Assembly: GCF_003018255.1 (NCBI RefSeq)
Contig: NZ_CP027440.1
DNA: 64,000 nt
Reading direction: 5' to 3' (one strand)
DNA from: Escherichia coli
GTDB lineage: Bacteria; Pseudomonadota; Gammaproteobacteria; Enterobacterales; Enterobacteriaceae
Shown here piece after piece: positions 4,316 through 62,432 of the stretch. Under the pieces are notes generated by a model. The model did not search any database and had not been told where the DNA came from. It saw nothing but the letters and a program-made list of their open reading frames with translations. Made by a program: the position numbers and the translations under genes. Positions within the stretch are counted from its first letter, which is position 1. Every line of letters begins with the position of its first letter.

Positions 4316-4885
4316 ATGAAACTCGTGCACATGGCCAGTGGTTTAGCGGTTGCGATTGCGTTGGCGGCTTGCGCAGATAAAAGCGCGGATATTCAGACGC
4401 CAGCACCGGCTGCAAATACGTCTATTTCAGCAACACAACCTGCTATCCAGCAACCGAATGTCTCCGGTACCGTCTGGATCCGTCAGAAAGTCGCACTGCC
4501 GCCTGATGCTGTGCTGACCGTGACACTTTCTGACGCGTCGTTAGCCGATGCGCCGTCAAAAGTGCTGGCGCAGAAAGCGGTGCGTACCGAAGGTAAACAG
4601 TCACCATTCAGCTTTGTTCTGCCATTTAACCCGGCAGATGTTCAGCCGAACGCGCGTATTCTATTGAGTGCGGCGATTACCGTGAATGACAAACTGGTAT
4701 TTATTACCGATACCGTTCAGCCGGTGATCAATCAGGGCGGAACTAAAGCCGACCTGACATTGGTGCCGGTGCAGCAAACCGCCGTGCCGGTTCAGGCCAG
4801 CGGTGGCGCAACGGCTACCGTACCTTCGACTTCACCAACTCAGGTGAATCCGTCTTCGGCAGTTCCAGCTCCTACGCAATATTAA
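4316..4885 (+). CDS. ybaY: Lipoprotein YbaY
   Basis: Lipobox LAAC after the signal peptide; Pro/Ala-rich; conserved position between tesB and atl. Confidence 0.85.
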   Translation: MKLVHMASGLAVAIALAACADKSADIQTPAPAANTSISATQPAIQQPNVSGTVWIRQKVALPPDAVLTVTLSDASLADAPSKVLAQKAVRTEGKQSPFSFVLPFNPADVQPNARILLSAAITVNDKLVFITDTVQPVINQGGTKADLTLVPVQQTAVPVQASGGATATVPSTSPTQVNPSSAVPAPTQY

Positions 4886-4887
4886 GC

Positions 4888-4915
4888 GCAGTTAACCCTC
4901 TCCGCCCGGAGAGGG
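4888..4915. terminator. Hairpin terminator (AACCCTCTCCgcccgGAGAGGGTT) between ybaY and atl
   Basis: Perfect 10-bp stem directly after the ybaY stop. Confidence 0.6.
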
Positions 4916-5305
4916 TTAGTAGTTCCAGCGATAACGCTGCAAGTCGATTTGCCCGCTTCCCGATACCATCACACCTTCTGCCAGTAATGCCTGTCGTTGA
5001 CGCTGTAAATCCGGTCCGGTTAGCGAAATTGTGCCGTGGCGATTAACCACCCGGTGCCAGGGCAAGGTGCTGCCTTCGGGGAGACGCTTTAACACACCGC
5101 CTACCTGGCGCGCGGCGCGCGGCGATCCCGCCAGTTTCGCCACATCACCGTAAGTGGTGACATAGCCTTCGGGAATAGCGGCGACGATTTGCCAGACGCG
5201 TTGGGGAAATGAATCTTCTTTTTCCATCTTTTCTTCCTGAGGTAATTTTTCAGCATAATCTGGAAAAACGCCCGAGTGAAGCCGCATTGCGCAAGAAACC
5301 AGCAT
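4916..5305 (-). CDS. atl: DNA base-flipping alkyltransferase-like protein Atl (YbaZ), 129 aa
   Basis: Internal Met of ORF 4916..5326 (MLVSCAMRLHSGVF...); Ogt-like HTH domain (TYGDVAKLAGSPRAARQVGGV) but no active-site PCHR cysteine. Confidence 0.88.
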   Translation of the reverse strand: MLVSCAMRLHSGVFPDYAEKLPQEEKMEKEDSFPQRVWQIVAAIPEGYVTTYGDVAKLAGSPRAARQVGGVLKRLPEGSTLPWHRVVNRHGTISLTGPDLQRQRQALLAEGVMVSGSGQIDLQRYRWNY

Positions 5306-5381
5306 CTGGCACGCAATGGGTTGCAATTAGCCGGGGCAGCAGTGATAATGCGCCTGCGCGTTGGTTCTCAACGCTCTCAAT

Positions 5382-5495
5382 GGGGGCTCTGTTGGTTCTC
5401 CCGCAACGCTACTCTGTTTACCAGGTCAGGTCCGGAAGGAAGCAGCCAAGGCAGATGACGCGTGTGCCGGGATGTAGCTGGCAGGGCCCCCACCC
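5382..5495 (+). ncRNA. ffs: 4.5S RNA (signal recognition particle RNA), 114 nt
   Basis: GGGGGCTCTGTTGGTTCTCCCGCAACGCTACTCTGTTTACCAGGTCAGGTCCGGAAGGAAGCAGCCAAGGCAGATGACGCGTGTGCCGGGATGTAGCTGGCAGGGCCCCCACCC matches E. coli 4.5S RNA, including the GGAA tetraloop of domain IV. Confidence 0.95.
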
Positions 5496-5605
5496 ATTTC
5501 TGCCTCCCCCCGTTTCGTCAAAAAATCCCAACATGGCTAAACTTTAACCACAACTGACGTCGCAAGAATTGTCTGGCTGCGCAGTACGCTTCGGAGGTAT
5601 GTCTG

Positions 5606-5959
5606 ATGAAGTATGTTGATGGTTTTGTTGTTGCCGTTCCTGCCGATAAAAAGGATGCCTATCGGGAAATGGCCGCTAAGGCCGCGCCATTATTTAAAGA
5701 GTTCGGTGCGCTTCGTATTGTCGAATGCTGGGCCAGCGATGTACCGGATGGTAAAGTGACCGATTTTCGTATGGCGGTGAAAGCGGAAGAGAATGAAGAG
5801 GTTGTCTTTAGCTGGATTGAATACCCTTCAAAAGAGGTCCGCGACGCTGCTAATCAAAAGATGATGTCGGACCCACGGATGAAAGAGTTCGGCGAGTCCA
5901 TGCCGTTTGACGGCAAGCGAATGATCTATGGTGGATTCGAATCAATCATCGACGAGTAG
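5606..5959 (+). CDS. ybaA: DUF1428 family protein YbaA (117 aa)
   Basis: Full ORF with a strong RBS (GGAGGT); sequence matches YbaA. Confidence 0.9.
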   Translation: MKYVDGFVVAVPADKKDAYREMAAKAAPLFKEFGALRIVECWASDVPDGKVTDFRMAVKAEENEEVVFSWIEYPSKEVRDAANQKMMSDPRMKEFGESMPFDGKRMIYGGFESIIDE

Positions 5960-51984: not shown

Positions 51985-52638
51985 CTTAAGAAGTCCGTCG
52001 GTCAGGGGGAGCATGAACTCTCCATCCTCACCGGAGTTGAGCTGGTTGTCAAACGTGGCGAGACCATCGCACTGGTGGGCGAGTCGGGATCGGGTAAGTC
52101 AACTTTGCTGGCGATCCTCGCCGGGCTGGATGACGGCAGCAGTGGCGAAGTGAGTCTGGTGGGACAACCGCTACATAATATGGACGAAGAAGCGCGGGCA
52201 AAGTTGCGCGCGAAGCACGTCGGCTTTGTTTTTCAGTCATTTATGTTAATTCCTACCCTTAACGCGCTGGAAAACGTCGAGCTTCCGGCGCTGCTGCGCG
52301 GTGAGAGTAGCGCGGAAAGTCGTAACGGGGCGAAAGCGTTGCTCGAACAGTTAGGGCTGGGTAAACGTCTGGATCATCTTCCGGCACAGCTTTCCGGCGG
52401 TGAACAGCAACGAGTGGCGCTGGCACGAGCCTTTAACGGTCGACCTGATGTGCTGTTTGCCGACGAACCCACCGGCAATCTTGACCGACAGACGGGCGAT
52501 AAAATTGCCGACCTGCTATTTTCCCTCAACCGTGAGCATGGCACCACGTTGATTATGGTGACCCACGACCTGCAACTGGCGGCACGCTGCGACCGCTGCT
52601 TACGGCTGGTGAACGGGCAATTGCAGGAGGAAGCATGA
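51952..52638 (+). CDS. ybbA: ABC transporter ATP-binding protein YbbA (228 aa)
   Basis: Walker A GESGSGKST, signature LSGGEQQR. Confidence 0.92.
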   Translation: MPAENIVEVHHLKKSVGQGEHELSILTGVELVVKRGETIALVGESGSGKSTLLAILAGLDDGSSGEVSLVGQPLHNMDEEARAKLRAKHVGFVFQSFMLIPTLNALENVELPALLRGESSAESRNGAKALLEQLGLGKRLDHLPAQLSGGEQQRVALARAFNGRPDVLFADEPTGNLDRQTGDKIADLLFSLNREHGTTLIMVTHDLQLAARCDRCLRLVNGQLQEEA

Positions 52639-55049
52639 TTGCACGTTGGTTCTGGCGCGAATGGCGCTCGCCGTCGCTATTAATTGTCTGGCTGGCGCTA
52701 AGCCTGGCGGTGGCCTGCGTGCTGGCGCTGGGCAATATCAGCGATCGCATGGAGAAGGGCTTAAGCCAGCAAAGCCGGGAGTTTATGGCGGGCGATCGGG
52801 CGTTGCGCAGTTCACGCGAAGTGCCACAAGCGTGGCTGGAGGAAGCGCAAAAGCGCGGCCTGAAAGTCGGCAAGCAGCTGACTTTCGCCACAATGACCTT
52901 TGCAGGCGACACACCGCAGCTGGCGAACGTCAAAGCGGTGGATGATATCTACCCGATGTATGGCGATCTGCAAACTAATCCCCCTGGCCTGAAACCGCAG
53001 GCGGGCAGCGTATTGCTGGCCCCACGCCTGATGGCACTGCTTAACCTGAAAACAGGCGACACCATCGACGTGGGTGATGCCACCTTGCGGATTGCCGGAG
53101 AAGTGATTCAGGAACCGGATTCCGGTTTTAACCCCTTCCAGATGGCTCCGCGTCTGATGATGAATCTGGCGGATGTCGATAAAACCGGAGCCGTGCAGCC
53201 GGGGAGTCGGGTCACCTGGCGCTATAAATTCGGCGGCAGCGAGAACCAGCTCGACGGCTATGAGAAATGGTTGTTACCCCAGCTTAAACCTGAACAACGC
53301 TGGTACGGTCTGGAACAGGACGAAGGCGCGCTGGGGCGATCGATAGAACGTTCGCAACAGTTCCTGCTGCTTTCGGCGCTTCTGACCTTGCTGCTGGCGG
53401 TGGCGGCGGTTGCGGTGGCGATGAATCATTACTGTCGCAGTCGCTACGACTTGGTGGCGATCCTCAAGACGCTGGGGGCAGGGCGAGCGCAACTGCGTAA
53501 GTTAATCGTCGGTCAGTGGTTGATGGTGCTGGCGCTTTCAGCCGTTACCGGTGGTGCGATAGGCCTGTTGTTCGAAAACGTGTTGATGGTGCTGCTCAAG
53601 CCCGTTTTGCCTGCTGCACTACCGCCAGCCAGCCTCTGGCCGTGGTTGTGGGCGCTGGGCACCATGACGGTCATCTCGCTGCTGGTGGGGCTACGACCGT
53701 ACCGCTTGTTGCTGGCAACGCAGCCTTTACGCGTATTACGTAATGATGTGGTCGCGAACGTCTGGCCGCTGAAGTTTTATCTGCCGATTGTCAGTGTGGT
53801 GGTTGTGCTGCTGCTCGCCGGATTAATGGGTGGCAGCATGCTGCTTTGGGCGGTGCTGGCGGGCGCGGTAGTACTGGCTTTGCTGTGCGGTGTGCTGGGC
53901 TGGATGCTGCTGAATGTACTTCGCCGCATGACGCTGAAATCGCTACCTCTGCGCCTGGCGGTTAGCCGCCTGTTACGTCAGCCGTGGTCAACGTTAAGCC
54001 AGCTTTCGGCATTTTCGCTCTCCTTTATGCTGCTGGCGCTGTTGCTGGTATTGCGTGGCGATCTGCTCGACCGCTGGCAGCAGCAGCTACCTCCAGAAAG
54101 CCCGAACTACTTTTTAATTAACATCGCCACAGAACAGGTAGCACCGCTAAAAGCGTTCCTCGCGGAACATCAGATAGTCCCGGAATCGTTTTATCCGGTG
54201 GTGCGGGCGCGGCTGACGGCGATTAACGATAAGCCGACAGAAGGCAATGAAGATGAGGCGCTCAATCGCGAACTCAATCTTACCTGGCAAAATACGCGGC
54301 CCGATCATAATCCGATTGTCGCCGGTAACTGGCCGCCAAAAGCCGATGAAGTGTCGATGGAAGAGGGGCTGGCGAAACGCTTAAACGTTGCCCTCGGTGA
54401 TACCGTGACTTTTATGGGCGATACCCAGGAGTTCCGCGCTAAAGTGACCAGCCTGCGCAAAGTGGACTGGGAAAGTCTGCGGCCTAATTTCTATTTTATT
54501 TTCCCTGAAGGGGCATTAGACGGGCAACCGCAGAGCTGGCTTACCAGTTTCCGCTGGGAGAATGGCAACGGCATGTTGACGCAACTCAACCGCCAGTTCC
54601 CTACTATTAGCCTGTTAGACATTGGCGCGATTTTAAAACAGGTCGGTCAGGTGCTGGAGCAGGTAAGTCGGGCGCTGGAGGTGATGGTGGTGCTGGTCAC
54701 CGCCTGCGGTATGTTGCTGTTGCTGGCACAGGTGCAGGTGGGAATGCGTCAGCGTCATCAGGAGCTGGTGGTGTGGCGCACACTCGGTGCGGGGAAAAAA
54801 CTGCTGCGTACCACGTTGTGGTGTGAGTTCGCCATGCTTGGGTTTGTTTCTGGCCTGGTAGCCGCAATTGGTGCGGAAACGGCGCTGGCAGTGTTGCAGG
54901 CGAAAGTGTTTGATTTTCCGTGGGAGCCAGACTGGCGATTGTGGATTGTGCTGCCGTGCAGCGGTGCACTGCTGCTGTCGCTTTTCGGCGGCTGGCTGGG
55001 TGCGCGACTGGTTAAGGGTAAGGCGCTGTTCAGGCAGTTTGCGGGATGA
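52635..55049 (+). CDS. ybbP: FtsX-like ABC transporter permease YbbP (804 aa)
   Basis: Two FtsX-like TM modules; 4-nt overlap with ybbA. Confidence 0.92.
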   Translation: MIARWFWREWRSPSLLIVWLALSLAVACVLALGNISDRMEKGLSQQSREFMAGDRALRSSREVPQAWLEEAQKRGLKVGKQLTFATMTFAGDTPQLANVKAVDDIYPMYGDLQTNPPGLKPQAGSVLLAPRLMALLNLKTGDTIDVGDATLRIAGEVIQEPDSGFNPFQMAPRLMMNLADVDKTGAVQPGSRVTWRYKFGGSENQLDGYEKWLLPQLKPEQRWYGLEQDEGALGRSIERSQQFLLLSALLTLLLAVAAVAVAMNHYCRSRYDLVAILKTLGAGRAQLRKLIVGQWLMVLALSAVTGGAIGLLFENVLMVLLKPVLPAALPPASLWPWLWALGTMTVISLLVGLRPYRLLLATQPLRVLRNDVVANVWPLKFYLPIVSVVVVLLLAGLMGGSMLLWAVLAGAVVLALLCGVLGWMLLNVLRRMTLKSLPLRLAVSRLLRQPWSTLSQLSAFSLSFMLLALLLVLRGDLLDRWQQQLPPESPNYFLINIATEQVAPLKAFLAEHQIVPESFYPVVRARLTAINDKPTEGNEDEALNRELNLTWQNTRPDHNPIVAGNWPPKADEVSMEEGLAKRLNVALGDTVTFMGDTQEFRAKVTSLRKVDWESLRPNFYFIFPEGALDGQPQSWLTSFRWENGNGMLTQLNRQFPTISLLDIGAILKQVGQVLEQVSRALEVMVVLVTACGMLLLLAQVQVGMRQRHQELVVWRTLGAGKKLLRTTLWCEFAMLGFVSGLVAAIGAETALAVLQAKVFDFPWEPDWRLWIVLPCSGALLLSLFGGWLGARLVKGKALFRQFAG

Positions 55050-55477: not shown

Positions 55478-56932
55478 ATGAGCGGAAAACCAGCGGCGCG
55501 TCAGGGAGATATGACTCAGTATGGCGGTCCCATTGTCCAGGGTTCGGCAGGTGTAAGAATTGGCGCGCCCACCGGCGTGGCGTGCTCGGTGTGTCCGGGC
55601 GGGATGACCTCGGGCAACCCGGTAAATCCGCTGCTGGGGGCGAAGGTGCTGCCCGGCGAGACGGACCTTGCGCTGCCCGGCCCGCTGCCGTTCATTCTCT
55701 CCCGCACCTACAGCAGCTACCGGACGAAGACGCCTGCGCCGGTGGGGATTTTTGGCCCCGGCTGGAAAGCGCCTTCTGATATCCGCTTACAGATACGCGA
55801 TGATGTACTGGTACTCAACGACAACGGCGGACGGAGCATTCACTTTGAGCCGCTGCTGCCGGGTGAGGCGGTGTACAGCCGCAGCGAGTCCCTGTGGCTG
55901 GTGCGTGGCGGTAAGGCAACGCAGCCGGACGGCCACACGCTGGCACGGCTGTGGGCGTCGCTGCCGCCGGATATCCGGTTAAGCCCGCATCTTTACCTGG
56001 CGACCAGCAGCGCACAGGGGCCGTGGTGGATACTGGGGTGGTCTGAGCGGGTGCCGGGTGCTGAGGACGTACTGCCAGCGCCGCTGCCGCCGTACCGGAT
56101 GCTTACCGGGCTGGCGGACCGCTTCGGGCAGACGCTGACGTACCGGCGTGAGGCCGCCGGTGACCTGGCCGGGGAAATCACCGGCGTGACGGACGGTGCC
56201 GGGCGGGAGTTCCGTCTGGTGCTGACCACGCAGGCGCAGCGGGCGGAAGAGGCCCGTAAACAGCACACCGCTTCCTTATTTTCCCCTGACACCCCCCGCC
56301 CTCTTTCAGACTCTGCGTTCCCCGACACACTGCCCGGTACGGAATACGGCCCCGACAGGGGCATCCGTCTTTCGGCGGTGTGGCTGATGCACGACCCGGC
56401 ATACCCGGAAAGCCTGCCCGGTGCGCCACTGGCGCGGTACACGTATACGGAAGCCGGTGAACTGCTGGCGGTATATGACCGCAGCAATACGCAGGTGCGC
56501 GCTTTCACGTATGACGCGCAGCACCCGGGCCGGATGGTGGGGCACCGTTATGCGGGAAGGCCGGAGATGCGCTACCGCTACGACGATGCGGGGCGGGTGG
56601 TGGAGCAGCTGAACCCGACAGGCCTGAGTTACCGCTACCAGTATGAGCAGGACCGCATCACCATCACGGACAGCCTGAACCGGCGAGAGGTGCTGCATAC
56701 AGAAGGCGGGGCCGGGCTGAAGCGGGTGGTGAAAAAAGAACTGGCGGACGGCAGCGTCACGCACAGCGGGTATGACGCGGCAGGAAGGCTCACGGCACAG
56801 ACGGACGCGGCGGGACGGCGGACAGAGTACGGCCTGAATGTGGTGTCCGGCGATATCACGGATATCACCACGCCGGACGGGCGGGAGACGAAATTTTACT
56901 ATAACGACGGGAACCAGTTAACGGCGGTGGTG
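55478..56932 (+). pseudogene. rhsD: rhs core gene, N-terminal 485 codons (RhsD-like), interrupted by an IS
   Basis: MSGKPAARQGDMTQYGGPIVQGSAGVRIGAPTG PAAR-like start, YD repeats. The reading frame runs into the IS terminal repeat (…NQLTAVV|[12 protein letters not shown]). Confidence 0.85.
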
Positions 56933-56967
56933 TCCTTGACCCACGATATTCAGACAGTCGTTGTATC

Positions 56968-57849
56968 TTAAGTTGACGTTACCCGCTGACGTCGATATTC
57001 CCTTGGTGAGAGATAACCTAACGCACTATGCGGATGGGTTTCATTGTAATGCTCGATCGCCACTGCAAGGTTATGCAATGCCGTTCTTACATTCGGTTTC
57101 GGCATGAACGCGATGTAGTCTTCTTTCATCGTTTTCACGAACCTTTCTGCCATTCCATTGCTCTGAGGGCTACTGACTGCCGTTGTGCAGGGCTCCAGAT
57201 TCAACTCTCTGGCGAACTGCCGTGTTTCATGAGCTGTATAAGCCGAACCGTTATCAGTCAGCCACTGGATTGGCCGTTCCGCTCCTTTATCGCCAAAGCG
57301 TTTTTCTATTGCTCCTAACATGACATCCTGCACCGTTGCTTTGTCATAACCTCCCGTGCTTGCGGCCCAGTCTATGGCTTCACGATCGCAACAGTCCAGT
57401 GCGAACGTGACACGCAGTTTTGCGCCATCATCACAACCGAACTCAAAGCCATCGGAACACCAGCGCTGGTCGCTTTCCTTCACCGATATTCGGCCTTTAT
57501 GTTCCCGCTGCGGCCGTGAAGGTTTGTCATGTAACAACAACAGGTTATTTTCGCTCATTATCCGATAAACGCGCTTTGCATTCACGAACGGCACTCCTTT
57601 GTTACGGGACTGTCGTCTGAGAATGGCCCAGACACGACGATAGCCATATGTCGGCATATCGCTGATGATATCAAGGATACGTGCTAACACTTCCGCATCC
57701 GCAGCCTCATCACATCTGCGACGACGTTTATTCGGCTTATTACCAGATGTTTTCATCCGTTGTGCCAGTTGCGCACGCGACACGCCCAGAATACGGCTTA
57801 CCAGGGTTATTCCTTGTCCGTTGGCAACAAGGGCGCATGCGCTATCCAT
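56968..57849 (-). CDS. IS transposase OrfB (DDE integrase domain), likely expressed as an OrfAB fusion by -1 frameshift
   Basis: 293-aa ORF, similar to IS2 InsD (…[10 protein letters not shown]…DCCDRE…WLTDNGS…HPHSALGY…). Confidence 0.85.
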
Positions 57850-58199
57850 TTTCGCGACTGACCATACTCCACCGCTTCTTTGAGGATCTCAACTTCCATG
57901 GTTTTCTTACCCAGCAAGCGCTGTAACTCTTTTATTTGTTTTATAGCGGCAGCCAGTTCTGAGGCAGGAACGACATCCTCTCCGGCAGCAACAGCAGTGA
58001 GACTTCCTTCCAGATATTGTTTTTTCCACTTAAACAACAGGCTGGGCTGAATACCATGCAAACGCGCCACATGGGACACCGTCATACCGGGTTCCATTGT
58101 CTGCTGAATAATGGCGATTTTTTCCTGAGGAGTTTTACGTTTACGAAGCTCCTGCCCCAGCAAAATTCCAGTCATCTCAAAATTAGCACTAGTAGACAT
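57807..58199 (-). CDS. IS transposase OrfA (HTH), IS2 InsC-like
   Basis: …[78 protein letters not shown]… Start taken at the internal Met, because the first Met of the ORF would lie inside the terminal IR. Confidence 0.75.
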
Positions 58200-58263
58200 A
58201 TATCCAAGCCTATCTCTTATTTTAAGATACATCCACTGTCTGGCGTTTCAAGGGGCCGGTTCA

Positions 58264-61038
58264 CAGTTAACGGCGGTGGTGTACCCGGACGGGCTGGAGA
58301 GCAGCCGGGCATATGATGAGCTGGACAGACTGGTATCGGAGACATCGCGCAGCGGGGAGACAGTACGCTACCGCTACGATGACGTGCACAGTGAGTTACC
58401 GGCGACGACAACGGATGCGACGGGCAGCACCCGGCAGATGACCTGGAGCCGCTACGGGCAGTTGCTGGCCTTCACCGACTGCTCGGGCTACCAGACCCGC
58501 TATGAATACGACCACTTTGGTCAGATGACGGCGGTCCATCGTGAGGAAGGCATCAGCACGTACAATACCTATAACCCGCGCGGCCAGCTGGTCAGCCGGA
58601 AAGACGCACAGGGCCGTGAAACGCGGTATGAATACAACGCCGCAGGCGACCTGACTGCCGTTATCACCCCGGACGGCAACCGGAGCGAGACACAGTACGA
58701 TGCGTGGGGAAAGGCGGTCAGCACCACGCAGGGCGGGCTGACGCGCAGTATGGAGTACGATGCTGCCGGACGTGTCATCAGCCTGACCAACGAGAACGGC
58801 AGTCACAGCGACTTCAGCTACGATACGCTTGACCGGCTGGTACAGCAGCGCGGCTTTGACGGGCGGACGCAACGTTATCATTATGACCTGACCGGAAAAC
58901 TCACGCAGAGTGAAGATGAGGGGCTTGTCATCCTCTGGTACTACGATGAATCGGACCGTATCACTCACCGCACGGTGAACGGCGAACCGGCAGAGCAGTG
59001 GCAGTATGATGGCCACGGCTGGCTGAGAGAAATCAGCCACCTGAGCGAAGGCCACCGTGTTGCCGTCCACTATGGCTACGACGATAAGGGCCGTCTGACC
59101 GGGGAGCGCCAGACGGTGGAGAACCCGGAGACGGGGGAACTGCTGTGGCAGCATGAGACGAAACAGGCATACAACGAACAGGGGCTGGCAAACCGCGTCA
59201 CGCCGGACAGCCTGCCGCCGGTGGAGTGGCTGGCCTATGGCAGCGGTTATCTGGCGGGCATGAAGCTGGGCGGGACGCCGCTGCTGGAGTACACGCGCGA
59301 CCGCCTGCACCGGGAGACGGTGCGCAGCTTCGGCAGCATGGCAGGCAATACAGCCGCATATGAACTGACCAGCACTTACACCCCCGCAGGCCAGTTACAG
59401 AGCCGGCACCTGAACAGCCTGGTGTTTGATTGTGACTATAACTGGAATGACAACGGCGACCTGATGCGCATCAGCGGCCCGCGACAGACGCGGGAATACG
59501 GCTACAGCGCCACGGGCAGGCTGGAGAGCGTGCGCACCCTCGCACCGGACCTGGACATCCGCATCCCGTATGCCACCGACCCGGCGGGCAACCGGCTGCC
59601 GGACCCGGAGCTGCACCCGGACAGTACACTCACAGTGTGGCCGGATAACCGAATCACCGAAGACGCGCACTACCTGTACCGTTACGATGAATACGGCAGG
59701 CTGGCGGAGAAGACGGACCGCATCCCGGCGGGTGTGATACGGACGGACGACGAGCGGACCCACCACTACCACTACGACAGCCAGCACCGCCTGGTGTTCT
59801 ATACGCGGATACAGCATGGCGAGCCACTGGTCGAGAGCCGCTACCTTTACGACCCGCTGGGCCGCCGGACGGGTAAACGGGTGTGGCGTCGCGGGCGTGA
59901 CCTGACAGGATGGATGTCGCTGTCGCGTAAACCGGAGGAGACGTGGTACGGGTGGGACGGCGACAGGCTGACGACGGTGCAGACTGACAGCACGCGTATC
60001 CAGACGGTGTACCAGCCGGGAAGCTTCACACCGCTCATCCGCATCGAAACAGACGTGACCGAACTGGAGAAAGCGCAGCGGCGGAGCCTGGCGGAGAAGC
60101 TCCAGCAGGAAGGGAGCGAGGACGGACACGGCGTGGTGTTCCCGGCTGAACTGGTGCGGCTGCTGGACAGGCTGGAGGAAGAAATCCGGACAGACCGCGT
60201 GAGCAGTGAAAGCCGGGCGTGGCTTGCGCAGTGCGGGCTGACGGTGGAGCAACTGGAAAAACAGGTGGAGCCGGAATATACACCGGCGCGAAAAGTTCAT
60301 CTTTACCACTGCGACCACCGGGGCCTGCCGCTGGCGCTTATCAGCGAAGACGGCAATACGGTGTGGAGCGCGGAGTATGATGAATGGGGAAACCTGCTTA
60401 ATGAGGAGAACCCGCATCATGTGTATCAGTCATACCGTCTGCCGGGGCAGCAGCATGATGAGGAGTCGGGGCTGTACTACAACCGGAACCGGTACTACAA
60501 TCCGTTGCTGGGACGATATATTACTCAGGACCCGATTGGGCTGGCGGGGGGATGGAGTCTGTATGCGTATCCGCTGAATCCGGTGAATGGTATTGATCCA
60601 TTAGGATTAAGTCCTGCAGATGTAGCGTTAATGCGAAAAAAAGAACAATTAAACCATCAAAGAGCATGGGATATATTATCTGATACTTATGATGATATGA
60701 AGAGATTAAATTTAGGTGGGACTGATCAATTTTTCCATTGTATGGCATTTTGTCGAGTGTCTAAATTAAATGACGCTGGTGTTAGCCGATCAGCGAAAGG
60801 GCTGGGTTATGAAAAAGAGATTAGAGATTACGGGTTAAATATGTTCGGTATGTACGGCAGAAAAGTAAAGTTATCCCATTCTGAGATGATTGAAGATAAT
60901 AAAAAAGACTTGGCTGTAAATGAACATGGGTTGACATGTCCATTAACACAAGATTGCTCAAATAGATGTATTGATTATATTAATCCAGAGCATAAAAAAA
61001 CGATAAAGGCTTTACAAGATGCTGGCTATCTCAAGTAA
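58264..61038 (+). CDS. rhs core gene continuation (YD repeats, RHS core, PxxxxDPxGL) plus variable C-terminal toxin domain; separated from its 5' part by the IS
   Basis: The frame resumes exactly: QLTAVV|[18 protein letters not shown]… DPIGLAGG demarcation motif at aa about 755 of this ORF, followed by an about 165-aa AT-rich C-terminal tip. Confidence 0.85.
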
Positions 61039-61510
61039 CATCTCAAAGATGGTAATATTTATTTTTGCTATTATAATCGTTGTTTTTTTATGCGTGACTA
61101 CTTATCTTTATTTACACAAAGATGAATCTCTTGTAAGTAAGCATTACATAAACTATATGGCAATACCAGAAAGTGATGGGGTTTTTACATGGCTCCCAGA
61201 TTTTTTTCCGCACGTAGCGGTGGATATATCAATATCCACAAATGTAGAAGATGATTATTTTTTTTCTTATTTTTCCCTAACAATCGATGATGGGGGGAGG
61301 TTTAAGAAAACATTGACTGTGAGGGCCAGGGAACAAGTGGCGAAAATCGTATCAGAGAATGATCCAGATACAAAAAAAGTGTGGTGTAAATATGGTAAAA
61401 TACCAGGGCAAGGGGATAGCGTAAACCTTTTTTTTGTTGGTGAAATTAATGTTACGCATTATTTTATAACAAATATTGGAGCTGGGTTACCTGATGCTTG
61501 TGCAGAGTAA
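61019..61510 (+). CDS. Putative Rhs immunity protein (163 aa, N-terminal TM helix), AT-rich
   Basis: ORF overlaps the rhs stop; an alternative start is at 61049. Hydrophobic segment [22 protein letters not shown]. Its position immediately 3' of the Rhs C-terminal tip is canonical for rhsI. Confidence 0.6.
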
Positions 61511-61876
61511 TTGCTTGAATTAAGAGTCTATCCCATATCGAAGTCGTCAACTTCGTAGTGAGGAAAAGTATAATCCCTGACTGAGAAAAGACATGTCGGC
61601 TATTGTGTAAAGCCATATAGCTCAGACGATGAATATCTACTCGTATTCAGTTGTTTATTGAGGGTGAGTTCCGACCCTGAAACAACAAATAAAATGAACA
61701 GCCAGAGAGTTTACATAGAATTGCACTGGTCTTTTACGATATCTGACATTGTGTAATACATATTCAGCCATGCATTAATTAAAATGTTACGTGTTTAATG
61801 TGAGTCCCTATCTGAAAATAAATAATCCTTCCGGATTAAAATAAATTCTCGCCGGGAAAGAAAGAGGAAATAAACC

Positions 61877-62010
61877 ATTAGCGGAAAACCAGCGGCACGC
61901 CAGGGTGACATGCCCCAGTACGGCGGCCCGATAGTCCAGGGTTCAGCGGGGGTACTGATAGTCGCGCCGACTGCATCGAGAACTCCATACAACTTTTTAC
62001 GGAACGTCAC
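61877..62010 (+). pseudogene. Orphan rhs 5' remnant (codons 2 to about 35 of an rhs gene, no start codon)
   Basis: SGKPAARQGDMPQYGGPIVQGSAGV is 80-90% nucleotide identity to positions 55481-55570 of the rhs start, then diverges and stops. Confidence 0.6.
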
Positions 62011-62024
62011 CTGATAAAATTTGT

Positions 62025-62432
62025 TCAGTATCGTCTTTTGAGATTCTCAAGGTTATGGAGTAACCAGACAGAACGGACACCACTGTCGGAGATAAAAACC
62101 CCCTGTTTACGCAGCTCGTTGCTGGCCCGGTGCTGACCATGTGTCGGGAAAGCGACGGCGTAATCAACAACAGCCTGTTCAATTGCCTCATCGGTACGGT
62201 TCTTAAGGTTAGGAGCGCGGCGACTACGATTAATCTGCGCATCCACACCGCCTTCAGCGGCCAGTTCGCGGTAACGATAAAACGTATCACGCGAAACGCC
62301 CATGATTTTACAGGCTTTTGATACGTTGCTGAGTTCTTCAGCCAGATTGAGCAAACCGGCTTTGTGTTTGATGACGGGATTGGCAGTATGAAGCATGAGA
62401 GTTACCTCTTGTTTTGGATAAGGATTCGACAC
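62025..62432 (-). pseudogene. ylbG: IS481-like transposase N-terminal HTH fragment (YlbG-like), truncated
   Basis: 135-aa ORF with HTH CKIMGVSRDTFYRYRELAAEGG and no integrase core downstream. Confidence 0.6.

Follow-up and report, generated by a model that had tools for sequence, protein, structure and literature searches.

The 64,000-nucleotide (nt) window of Escherichia coli DNA analysed here (the whole stretch, from contig NZ_CP027440.1) carries an rhs gene that ends in a tip of 142 amino acids (aa), very probably a toxin, and that is overlapped at its 3' end by a short gene for a presumed immunity protein. The site is the rhsD locus of E. coli, where the genes run in the order ybbP (52635-55049), rhs, a 163-aa open reading frame (ORF), a ylbI-like fragment, ylbG and selU/mnmH. 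An earlier note, made from the sequence alone, had drawn attention to the tip and to the ORF. By its sequence profile and predicted fold, the tip belongs to the bacterial homologs of serum amyloid A (SAA), the prok-SAA toxin domains of the Lipocone superfamily, while the ORF is a member of the YbbD family. The features of the locus are as follows.

55478-56933, plus strand: 5' part of rhs with a PAAR-like N-terminus, DUF6531 and the first RHS repeats, truncated by an insertion sequence (IS); collinear with 4437-5883 of the intact allele at locus L002.
56934-58263, minus strand: IS3-family (IS2-like) element, a 1330-nt insert relative to the intact allele, with orfA at 57807-58232 and orfB at 56968-57849.
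58264-60609, plus strand: 3' part of the rhs core with RHS repeats and the RHS-associated core domain, 98% identical to the intact L002 allele.
60529-60609, plus strand: demarcation motif DPIGLAGG…DPLGL, read directly from the sequence, with DPIGLAGG at 60529-60552 and DPLGL at 60595-60609.
60610-61038, plus strand: toxin tip, 142 aa and a stop (codons 60610-61035, stop 61036-61038), a prok-SAA domain by profile, Pfam, fold and conservation.
61019-61510, plus strand: YbbD-family protein of 163 aa, the presumed immunity protein, by PF26610 (YbbD_head) and NCBIfam NF011298.
61511-61876, no strand: non-coding spacer, the remainder of an AT-rich block, also present in K-12.
61877-61971, plus strand: ylbI-like fragment, which repeats the initial 95 nt of rhs (55478-55572) at 79% identity.
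62028-62432, minus strand: ylbG, a truncated helix-turn-helix/transposase N-terminus.

The tip and its partner stand out from the rest of the locus by their base composition. The Rhs core has a GC content of 0.617 (58283-60609) and 0.655 (55478-56930); after the demarcation motif, the value falls to 0.347 in the tip and 0.350 in the 163-aa ORF, stays at 0.363 in the spacer (61511-61876) and is 0.64 again from 61877 on. In a sliding profile, the break lies at about 60600, at the second DPxGL, and the block ends at 61876. The sharply AT-rich block reported in the earlier note as running through both tip and ORF is real, while its proposed limits of 60540 and 61510 require correction, the break lying about 70 nt downstream of the first and the end about 370 nt beyond the second. 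The demarcation stretch is 27 aa long, and the NCBIfam RHS_core and Rhs_assc_core models both stop at its residue 27. Counted from the D of DPIGLAGG, 169 aa precede the stop, and the tip proper, after DPLGL, comprises 142 aa. In Rhs and Tc proteins, the demarcation motif is the site where the tip is released autoproteolytically.

A word-indexed homolog search with the tip alone gave only close enterobacterial relatives, and a comparison of the tip alone with the sequences of the Protein Data Bank (PDB) gave five weak matches, all of them SAA chains. In a phmmer search of 1.84 billion representative proteins, 93 clusters were found at an expectation value (E) of 1e-3 or less. In nearly all 93 clusters, no more than 10 residues separate the end of the homologous domain from the C-terminus, and RHS repeats are present in eight of ten long representatives. 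From this family, 58 sequences with a mean column identity of 29% were aligned. Searched against the PDB, the resulting profile matched SAA chains only (7zh7 at 6.6e-15, 4ip8 at 3.9e-12, down to 1.3e-7); there was no non-SAA match below an E of 0.1, the next one standing at 0.14. The Pfam SAA family, PF00277, is matched individually by 47 of the 58 members, the best at 1.4e-24.

Eight residues are invariant in the 58 sequences, namely D39, H43, C44, E70, D100, N104, C116 and C120, and M30, C48, D73, D96 and G107 are nearly so (D73, D96 and G107 being at least 90% conserved). The Cys/His-rich pattern that had been pointed out in the tip, consisting of H43 with C44, C48, C110, C116 and C120, is present and conserved in the family. 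In the profile alignment, vertebrate SAA shares D39, H43, E70, D96, D100, N104 and G107 with the tip. It carries Ala at the position of C44 and Tyr at that of C48, and the matched stretch does not extend as far as C116 and C120. Since SAA keeps the His, Glu, Asp, Asn and Gly but lacks the cysteines, the latter are more likely to be structural than catalytic.

The AlphaFold (AF2) model of the tip is of high confidence, with a predicted local distance difference test (pLDDT) of 96.5 and a predicted template-modelling score (pTM) of 0.89. It consists of six helices (residues 2-33, 39-51, 56-78, 90-108, 116-123 and 129-137) arranged as an all-alpha, SAA-type bundle. When the PDB was searched with Foldseek, the top seven matches were all SAA1 or SAA3, each with a probability of 1.00 and template-modelling (TM) scores of 0.68-0.74. 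Vertebrate SAA (SAA1/SAA3; PF00277) accordingly shares a homologous four-helix core with the tip at these scores, and differs from it in having neither the cysteines nor the extra C-terminal helices H5 and H6. The vertebrate protein is secreted as an acute-phase apolipoprotein; no enzymatic activity has been demonstrated for it, and it lacks an immunity partner.

The Lipocone superfamily was defined in 2025 by Burroughs, Nicastro and Aravind, who placed SAA in it together with Wnt, TelC, VanZ, YfiM and PTDSS1/2, and listed prok-SAA among the tips of polymorphic toxins of type VI secretion system (T6SS) and MuF contexts (PMC12419801). The predicted Lipocone site comprises a His in H2, a Glu in H3 as well as an acidic residue where this helix ends, and an Asp/Asn with a Gly cap in H4 (PMC12419801). 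The predicted model of the tip contains the four-helix cone core and the fifth helix of the Lipocone fold, and the polar positions are occupied by H43 (H2), E70 (H3), D73, D100/N104 (H4) and G107 as the cap.

A possible relative of the tip was noticed at an RhsE-type gene with ydcD in E. coli DETEC-S792 (L002, 53-1996 and 1980-2462), the tip of which is Pfam DUF6973 (2e-12). Aligned by hhalign, this tip and the profile of the SAA-like family match with a probability of 89% and an E of 2.3e-6, and both follow the pattern H-C-x3-C … H-E … N-x2-G-x2-C … C-x3-C. The DUF6973 tip of RhsE may be a further, unlisted Lipocone/SAA toxin relative; the immunity protein that goes with it, YdcD, has no relationship to YbbD.

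Turning to the downstream gene, its product matches NCBIfam NF011298 over the full length with 373 bits; the RefSeq name is 'YbbD family protein' and the precomputed Pfam family is PF26610, YbbD_head. It had been described as an overlapping 163-aa ORF with an N-terminal transmembrane helix, and the details agree: the overlap with the tip is 20 nt, residues 8-26 are strongly hydrophobic with a mean Kyte-Doolittle value of 3.0, and the structural model has a helix at residues 4-33, with a pLDDT of 86-93 for residues 11-30. The YbbD profile found no match in the PDB. Homologs of YbbD share W58, P64, I70, F85 and C123, joined by C161 in a larger alignment, and begin with either a transmembrane helix or a lipobox-like signal. 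Such anchors point to the periplasmic side of the membrane, where YbbD would presumably act, and they agree with the immunity proteins described for Lipocone toxins, which are membrane-anchored or lipoproteins (PMC12419801).

As a separate observation, residues 34-153 of YbbD (61019-61507) give a second NCBIfam match, to NF007301 (PRK09781, a 181-aa 'hypothetical protein'), at an E of 1.8e-16, which points to a paralogous YbbD-like family in enterobacteria. The Rhs-associated ORFs YdcD and YbfC of K-12 have no similarity to YbbD, and neither of them is PRK09781.

The association of YbbD with the tip extends well beyond E. coli. The sample of related loci was limited to tips containing FFHCxAFC[RK] and comprised eleven loci, with a 7-sequence alignment. 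A YbbD-type ORF lies directly 3' of the tip in all eleven. At two of them (L004 and L005) it is frameshifted; both loci are about 93% identical to E. coli and K-12-like. The other nine come from eight non-Escherichia genera, namely Azoarcus, Phytobacter, Snodgrassella (two loci), Aggregatibacter, Halomonas, Neisseria, Rodentibacter and Yokenella. Among five more distant Rhs genes, the SAA tips of which are about 35-42% identical to the one here, a YbbD_head gene comes next in two (L016 and L020), L018 and L019 have other small, N-terminally anchored proteins, and one is without a called neighbour. The conservation of the ORF beside this tip in other genomes, on which the earlier note had made its proposal depend, is therefore seen in nine non-Escherichia loci as well as in L016 and L020. 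The same note's reading of a swapped polymorphic toxin/immunity cassette is well supported by the GC break, the C-terminal position of the domain in the clusters, the RHS repeats in eight of ten long representatives and a partner that travels with the tip across genera. We regard the module as very probably an SAA-like Rhs toxin with YbbD as its immunity protein.

Two further observations concern the partners. The anchored proteins that follow the metagenomic SAA-tip Rhs genes at L018 (2515-2889) and L019 (3392-3802) are not YbbD-like, so the toxin family pairs with several immunity families; one of the two, with a lipobox and another four cysteines, is a candidate for the published four-Cys 'Imm-SAA'. 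In Neisseria sp. CP9 (L012), two YbbD-family genes stand in tandem (4360-4866 and 5204-5716) after a single SAA-like tip fragment, an arrangement that reads as an immunity duplication or an orphan-immunity array.

The gene that carries the tip has the features of an Rhs system: a shell of RHS/YD repeats, the associated core domain, a demarcation motif followed by a tip of foreign composition, and a downstream partner gene. In this genome it lies in two halves, 55478-56933 and 58264-61038. The 5' part matches DUF6531 (7e-19), RHS_repeat (1e-25) and PAAR_motif (E 0.042) in Pfam. The core 3' part matches RHS_repeat (9.9e-51) and RHS (1.2e-17) in Pfam, NCBIfam RHS_core NF041261 with 1656 bits over model positions 486-1261, and Rhs_assc_core at 1.2e-23. 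The listed 920-aa ORF at 58276-61038 is the rhs reading frame picked up again after the IS. Copies 99% identical to this IS carry the RefSeq annotation 'IS3 family transposase'. The intact allele encodes 1400 aa and is found, for example, in E. coli DETEC-S792 (L002, 4437-8639) and at L015. Because the IS splits rhs, there is no complete Rhs protein to deliver the tip in this strain and the weapon is disabled; in this genome, only the immunity gene could still matter.

The insertion looks recent, since its flanking repeat is exact and the rest of the gene is 98% identical to the intact allele. The repeat itself was noted as a 19-nt direct repeat of the target, CAGTTAACGGCGGTGGTGT, which flanks the IS at 56915-56933 and 58264-58282 and is present as a single copy in the uninterrupted allele. 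Target duplications of the IS3 family are typically 3-5 bp. The duplication here amounts to 14-19 bp when the TG/CA ends shared with the IS are allowed for, which is unusual for the family.

The module is common in E. coli. Of 5,426 complete E. coli genomes, 2,723 contain a match to positions 60400-61900 that spans at least 80% of this stretch. With a query that joins 500 nt of core to the tip, coverage of at least 80% is reached in 964 complete genomes, an O157:H7 strain among them. Roughly 1,760 genomes have the tip as a short orphan, compared with the 964 in which at least 500 nt of core are contiguous with it. Both arrangements, as the main tip fused to a core and as an orphan, are thus common. 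The K-12 counterparts are the orphan pseudogenes ylbH (rhsH) and ybbD, which lie behind rhsD-ybbC. The tip and K-12 ylbH are identical at 132 of 142 aa (93%), and none of the ten differences falls at a predicted active-site position. Both genomes have the module in the locus ybbP … ylbG-selU, with the 20-nt overlap and a ylbI fragment downstream, and their nucleotide identity over tip, immunity gene and spacer is about 96-97% by eye. K-12 differs in having the tip as a 236-aa orphan fragment behind another main tip (rhsD-CT, which goes with ybbC), and the reading frame of its ybbD is broken by a 1-nt deletion within a run of T. In the present genome, an intact ybbD accompanies a tip that is fused to a full core, the latter being interrupted by the IS. 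As for the impression that the tip is unlike those of K-12 RhsA-D, it does differ from their main tips, but it is the K-12 orphan tip ylbH.

Nor is the tip of an unrecognised family, as the earlier note had it: it is the ylbH/rhsH tip, which about every second complete E. coli genome carries, an SAA homolog and a member of a published family. The module is common and catalogued, and both its SAA homology and its membership in a toxin family are already published. A 2020 in-silico study of enterohaemorrhagic E. coli O157:H7 EDL933 found the C-terminal portion of RhsD (z0651) to resemble human SAA1 (4ip8A, TM 0.62) and the PF00277 motif to occur in seven PAAR-Rhs proteins of O157:H7 (PMC7216683). 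That study considered a possible role in the host immune response, rather than an antibacterial, lipid-targeting toxin (PMC7216683). An O157:H7 genome among the matches has core and tip at 94% identity to the present genome, and its gene is presumably the same as z0651.

Compared with prok-SAA as published, the module has in common an SAA-type helical C-terminal tip in T6SS/Rhs contexts, the His, Glu, Asp-Asn and Gly site, and an immunity protein that is membrane-anchored or a lipoprotein. The published partners are either 'Imm-SAA', with a helix, four strands and four Cys, or BamE-like, whereas the partner here is a YbbD_head protein with two. On account of these two conserved Cys (C123 and C161) instead of four, YbbD is treated as a distinct immunity family. 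The tip therefore does match an Rhs C-terminal toxin family that is described and named, while the activity of the members of that family is only predicted.

Within the superfamily, TelC/TipC of Streptococcus intermedius (a prok-TelC Lipocone) offers another point of comparison. TelC is placed among the Lipocones, as the present tip is, in PMC12419801. It is a contact-dependent toxin, the immunity protein of which acts on the membrane or extracytoplasmic side, and it provides the template for the lipid II or undecaprenyl-linked target proposed here. It differs in clade, in its delivery by a type VII secretion system (LXG) and in an unrelated immunity protein, and TelC was absent among the matches listed in the sequence and fold searches.

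From the homology, the predicted fold, the conservation of the site, the C-terminal position on Rhs, the linkage to YbbD and the types of YbbD anchor, all of which are observed, we infer a delivery route, disulfides, a substrate, a catalytic step and a mode of neutralisation for the intact allele. The Rhs shell would enclose the tip, and autoproteolysis at DPxGL would free it, as is known for the family. Delivery into the envelope of a neighbouring cell would probably use a T6SS by way of the PAAR-like N-terminus. 'Neighbourless' Rhs proteins of E. coli are related to the Rhs of T6SS2 (PMC6730261). The tip would then fold oxidatively in the target periplasm, where the CxxxC pairs of helix 2 and helix 5 are probably disulfide-linked and could staple the fifth helix to the core. 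There, the site formed by His43, Glu70, Asp73, Asp100 and Asn104 may attack the phosphate-linked head groups of envelope lipids, the likeliest substrates being undecaprenyl-(pyro)phosphate-linked precursors such as lipid II, so that envelope synthesis would be blocked. YbbD, held by its inner-membrane anchor with its domain in the periplasm, would bind and block the tip there in sister cells.

The confidence that can be placed in this proposal decreases from step to step. Extracytoplasmic action of the same toxin and immunity package is likely. Specific cleavage of a lipid carrier is a possibility that we hold at somewhat less than even confidence. The full reading, in which the tip would be an active periplasmic phosphoesterase on undecaprenyl-(pyro)phosphate-linked precursors (lipid II) and YbbD a periplasmic inhibitor of new fold, is tentative and rather doubtful as a whole. 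Among relatives, according to the summary in PMC12419801, TelC cleaves lipid II, and its toxicity is seen only outside the cytoplasm. Experimental support in the Lipocones consists only of TelC and PTDSS1/2 (PMC12419801) and YfiM, the last being a lipid-linked oligosaccharide pyrophosphatase (bioRxiv 10.64898/2026.09.16.752124).

Several findings weigh against the proposal. Taken alone, the tip scores 22 bits against Pfam SAA (E 1.6e-4 to 2.6e-4), below the gathering threshold of 30.8, and the YbbD model is poor overall, with a pLDDT of 52.5. We know of no prok-SAA domain or vertebrate SAA that has been demonstrated to be an enzyme, and the predicted catalysis is drawn from conservation and from distant members of the superfamily. 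The rhs gene is split and its PAAR_motif match is weak (E 0.042), so that an intact gene with a delivery domain is wanting here, and neither vgrG nor eagR stands next to rhs in this window, in K-12 or in JNE23-011, a strain with the intact allele. YbbD is of neither the published 'Imm-SAA' type, with its four conserved Cys, nor the BamE-like type, a point that bears on the kind of immunity protein and not on where the toxin belongs. The motif of the SAA clade in H4, sNxxGR (PMC12419801), reads VNEHGL in the tip, Asn and Gly being kept and Arg replaced by Leu. Finally, binding of H-NS/StpA to the homologous AT-rich block of K-12 suggests silencing.

The last point leads to the reading that survives best beside the one proposed, and that is compatible with it: in this genome, as in K-12, the module would be a silenced relic, with the immunity gene at most kept against neighbours that have intact alleles. 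We lean towards this view. The IS splits rhs here, the K-12 tip is an orphan fragment with a frameshifted ybbD, and roughly 1,760 genomes have the orphan tip as against 964 with core. In K-12, H-NS and StpA cover ybbC-rhsH-ybbD, which is why the AT-rich block lacks transposon insertions (PMC9948719); an earlier study by transposon-directed insertion-site sequencing had taken the transposon-free ybbD as possible essentiality. Against decay speak the intact tip and ybbD ORFs of this genome with all invariant residues kept, the near-identical, intact 1400-aa alleles at L002 and L015, and the apparent recency of the IS insertion, judged by its exact repeat and the 98% identity to the intact allele. 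An RpoD site between ylbH and ybbD of K-12, listed by genomic SELEX (PMC3946193), stands on the side of this reading; on the other side, a simple promoter/terminator scan of 60300-62000 gave no plus-strand sigma-70-like site and no result above shuffled sequences. On balance, the module probably does not serve as an active weapon here.

A second alternative accepts the SAA-like tip as a periplasmic toxin and denies it catalysis. It would bind an envelope protein such as the peptidoglycan-binding C-domain of OmpA and upset the attachment of the outer membrane to the cell wall, with YbbD sequestering it. The model is BteO of Bacteroides fragilis (PDB 9UU0), a T6SS effector with periplasmic toxicity; it is reported to be non-enzymatic and to use a helical groove for binding OmpA-C-like domains (PMC12541434), and it has no detectable sequence similarity to the tip. 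Binding of E. coli OmpA by human SAA has been reported, according to a citation in PMC12419801, and there is no SAA with a known catalytic activity. Nevertheless, the invariance of D39, H43, E70, D100 and N104, where mean column identity is 29%, fits an active site better than a groove that tracks variable targets. The immunity proteins also diverge: BtiO is an OmpA-C-like alpha/beta mimic, while the model of YbbD, of low confidence, is largely beta with a single helix, and there was no match of YbbD to an OmpA family. We consider OmpA binding unlikely. The suggestion that the tip is a metal-dependent or papain-like hydrolase, possibly acting in the cytoplasm, can draw on the adjacent and invariant H43-C44, the conserved C48, C116 and C120, a CxxxC…CxxxC arrangement that could in principle bind metal and a weak match to Peptidase_C7, yet it is highly improbable: that match is not significant (E 0.043), no other peptidase, nuclease or deaminase family was matched, profile and predicted all-alpha fold both point uniquely to SAA, SAA has no equivalents of C44 and C48, which places the cysteines outside the shared site, and the membrane or lipid anchors of the immunity proteins argue against a cytoplasmic target.

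For genome annotation, the module carries little weight, being a common, catalogued pair on an IS-disrupted gene. Its value lies in what it makes available: a bacterial SAA homolog that keeps the whole predicted catalytic site, together with a dedicated immunity protein, is at hand in ordinary E. coli. The module is an easy test case for the proposal, made in 2025, that SAA-type domains act as enzymes on lipid head groups, and for the function of YbbD_head as well. If the phosphoesterase reading is true, it would provide a first experimental handle on the ancestral activity of the SAA family in the most tractable organism, the function of the vertebrate proteins being unsettled.

Some minor observations concern the surroundings. 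PADLOC gave no defence-system match. The ylbI-like fragment marks, by its likeness to the start of rhs, the far boundary of the rhs element; with the 5' end of rhs on one side and its 95-nt copy past the AT-rich block on the other, the whole element is bracketed by direct repeats of its own start. Beyond it, ylbG shares 50% identity over 122 aa with a transposase-like gene of Snodgrassella alvi App4-8 (L009, 4642-5172), which directly adjoins a (truncated) YbbD homolog on the 3' side. A similar mobile-element gene thus stands beside the module in two distant genera.

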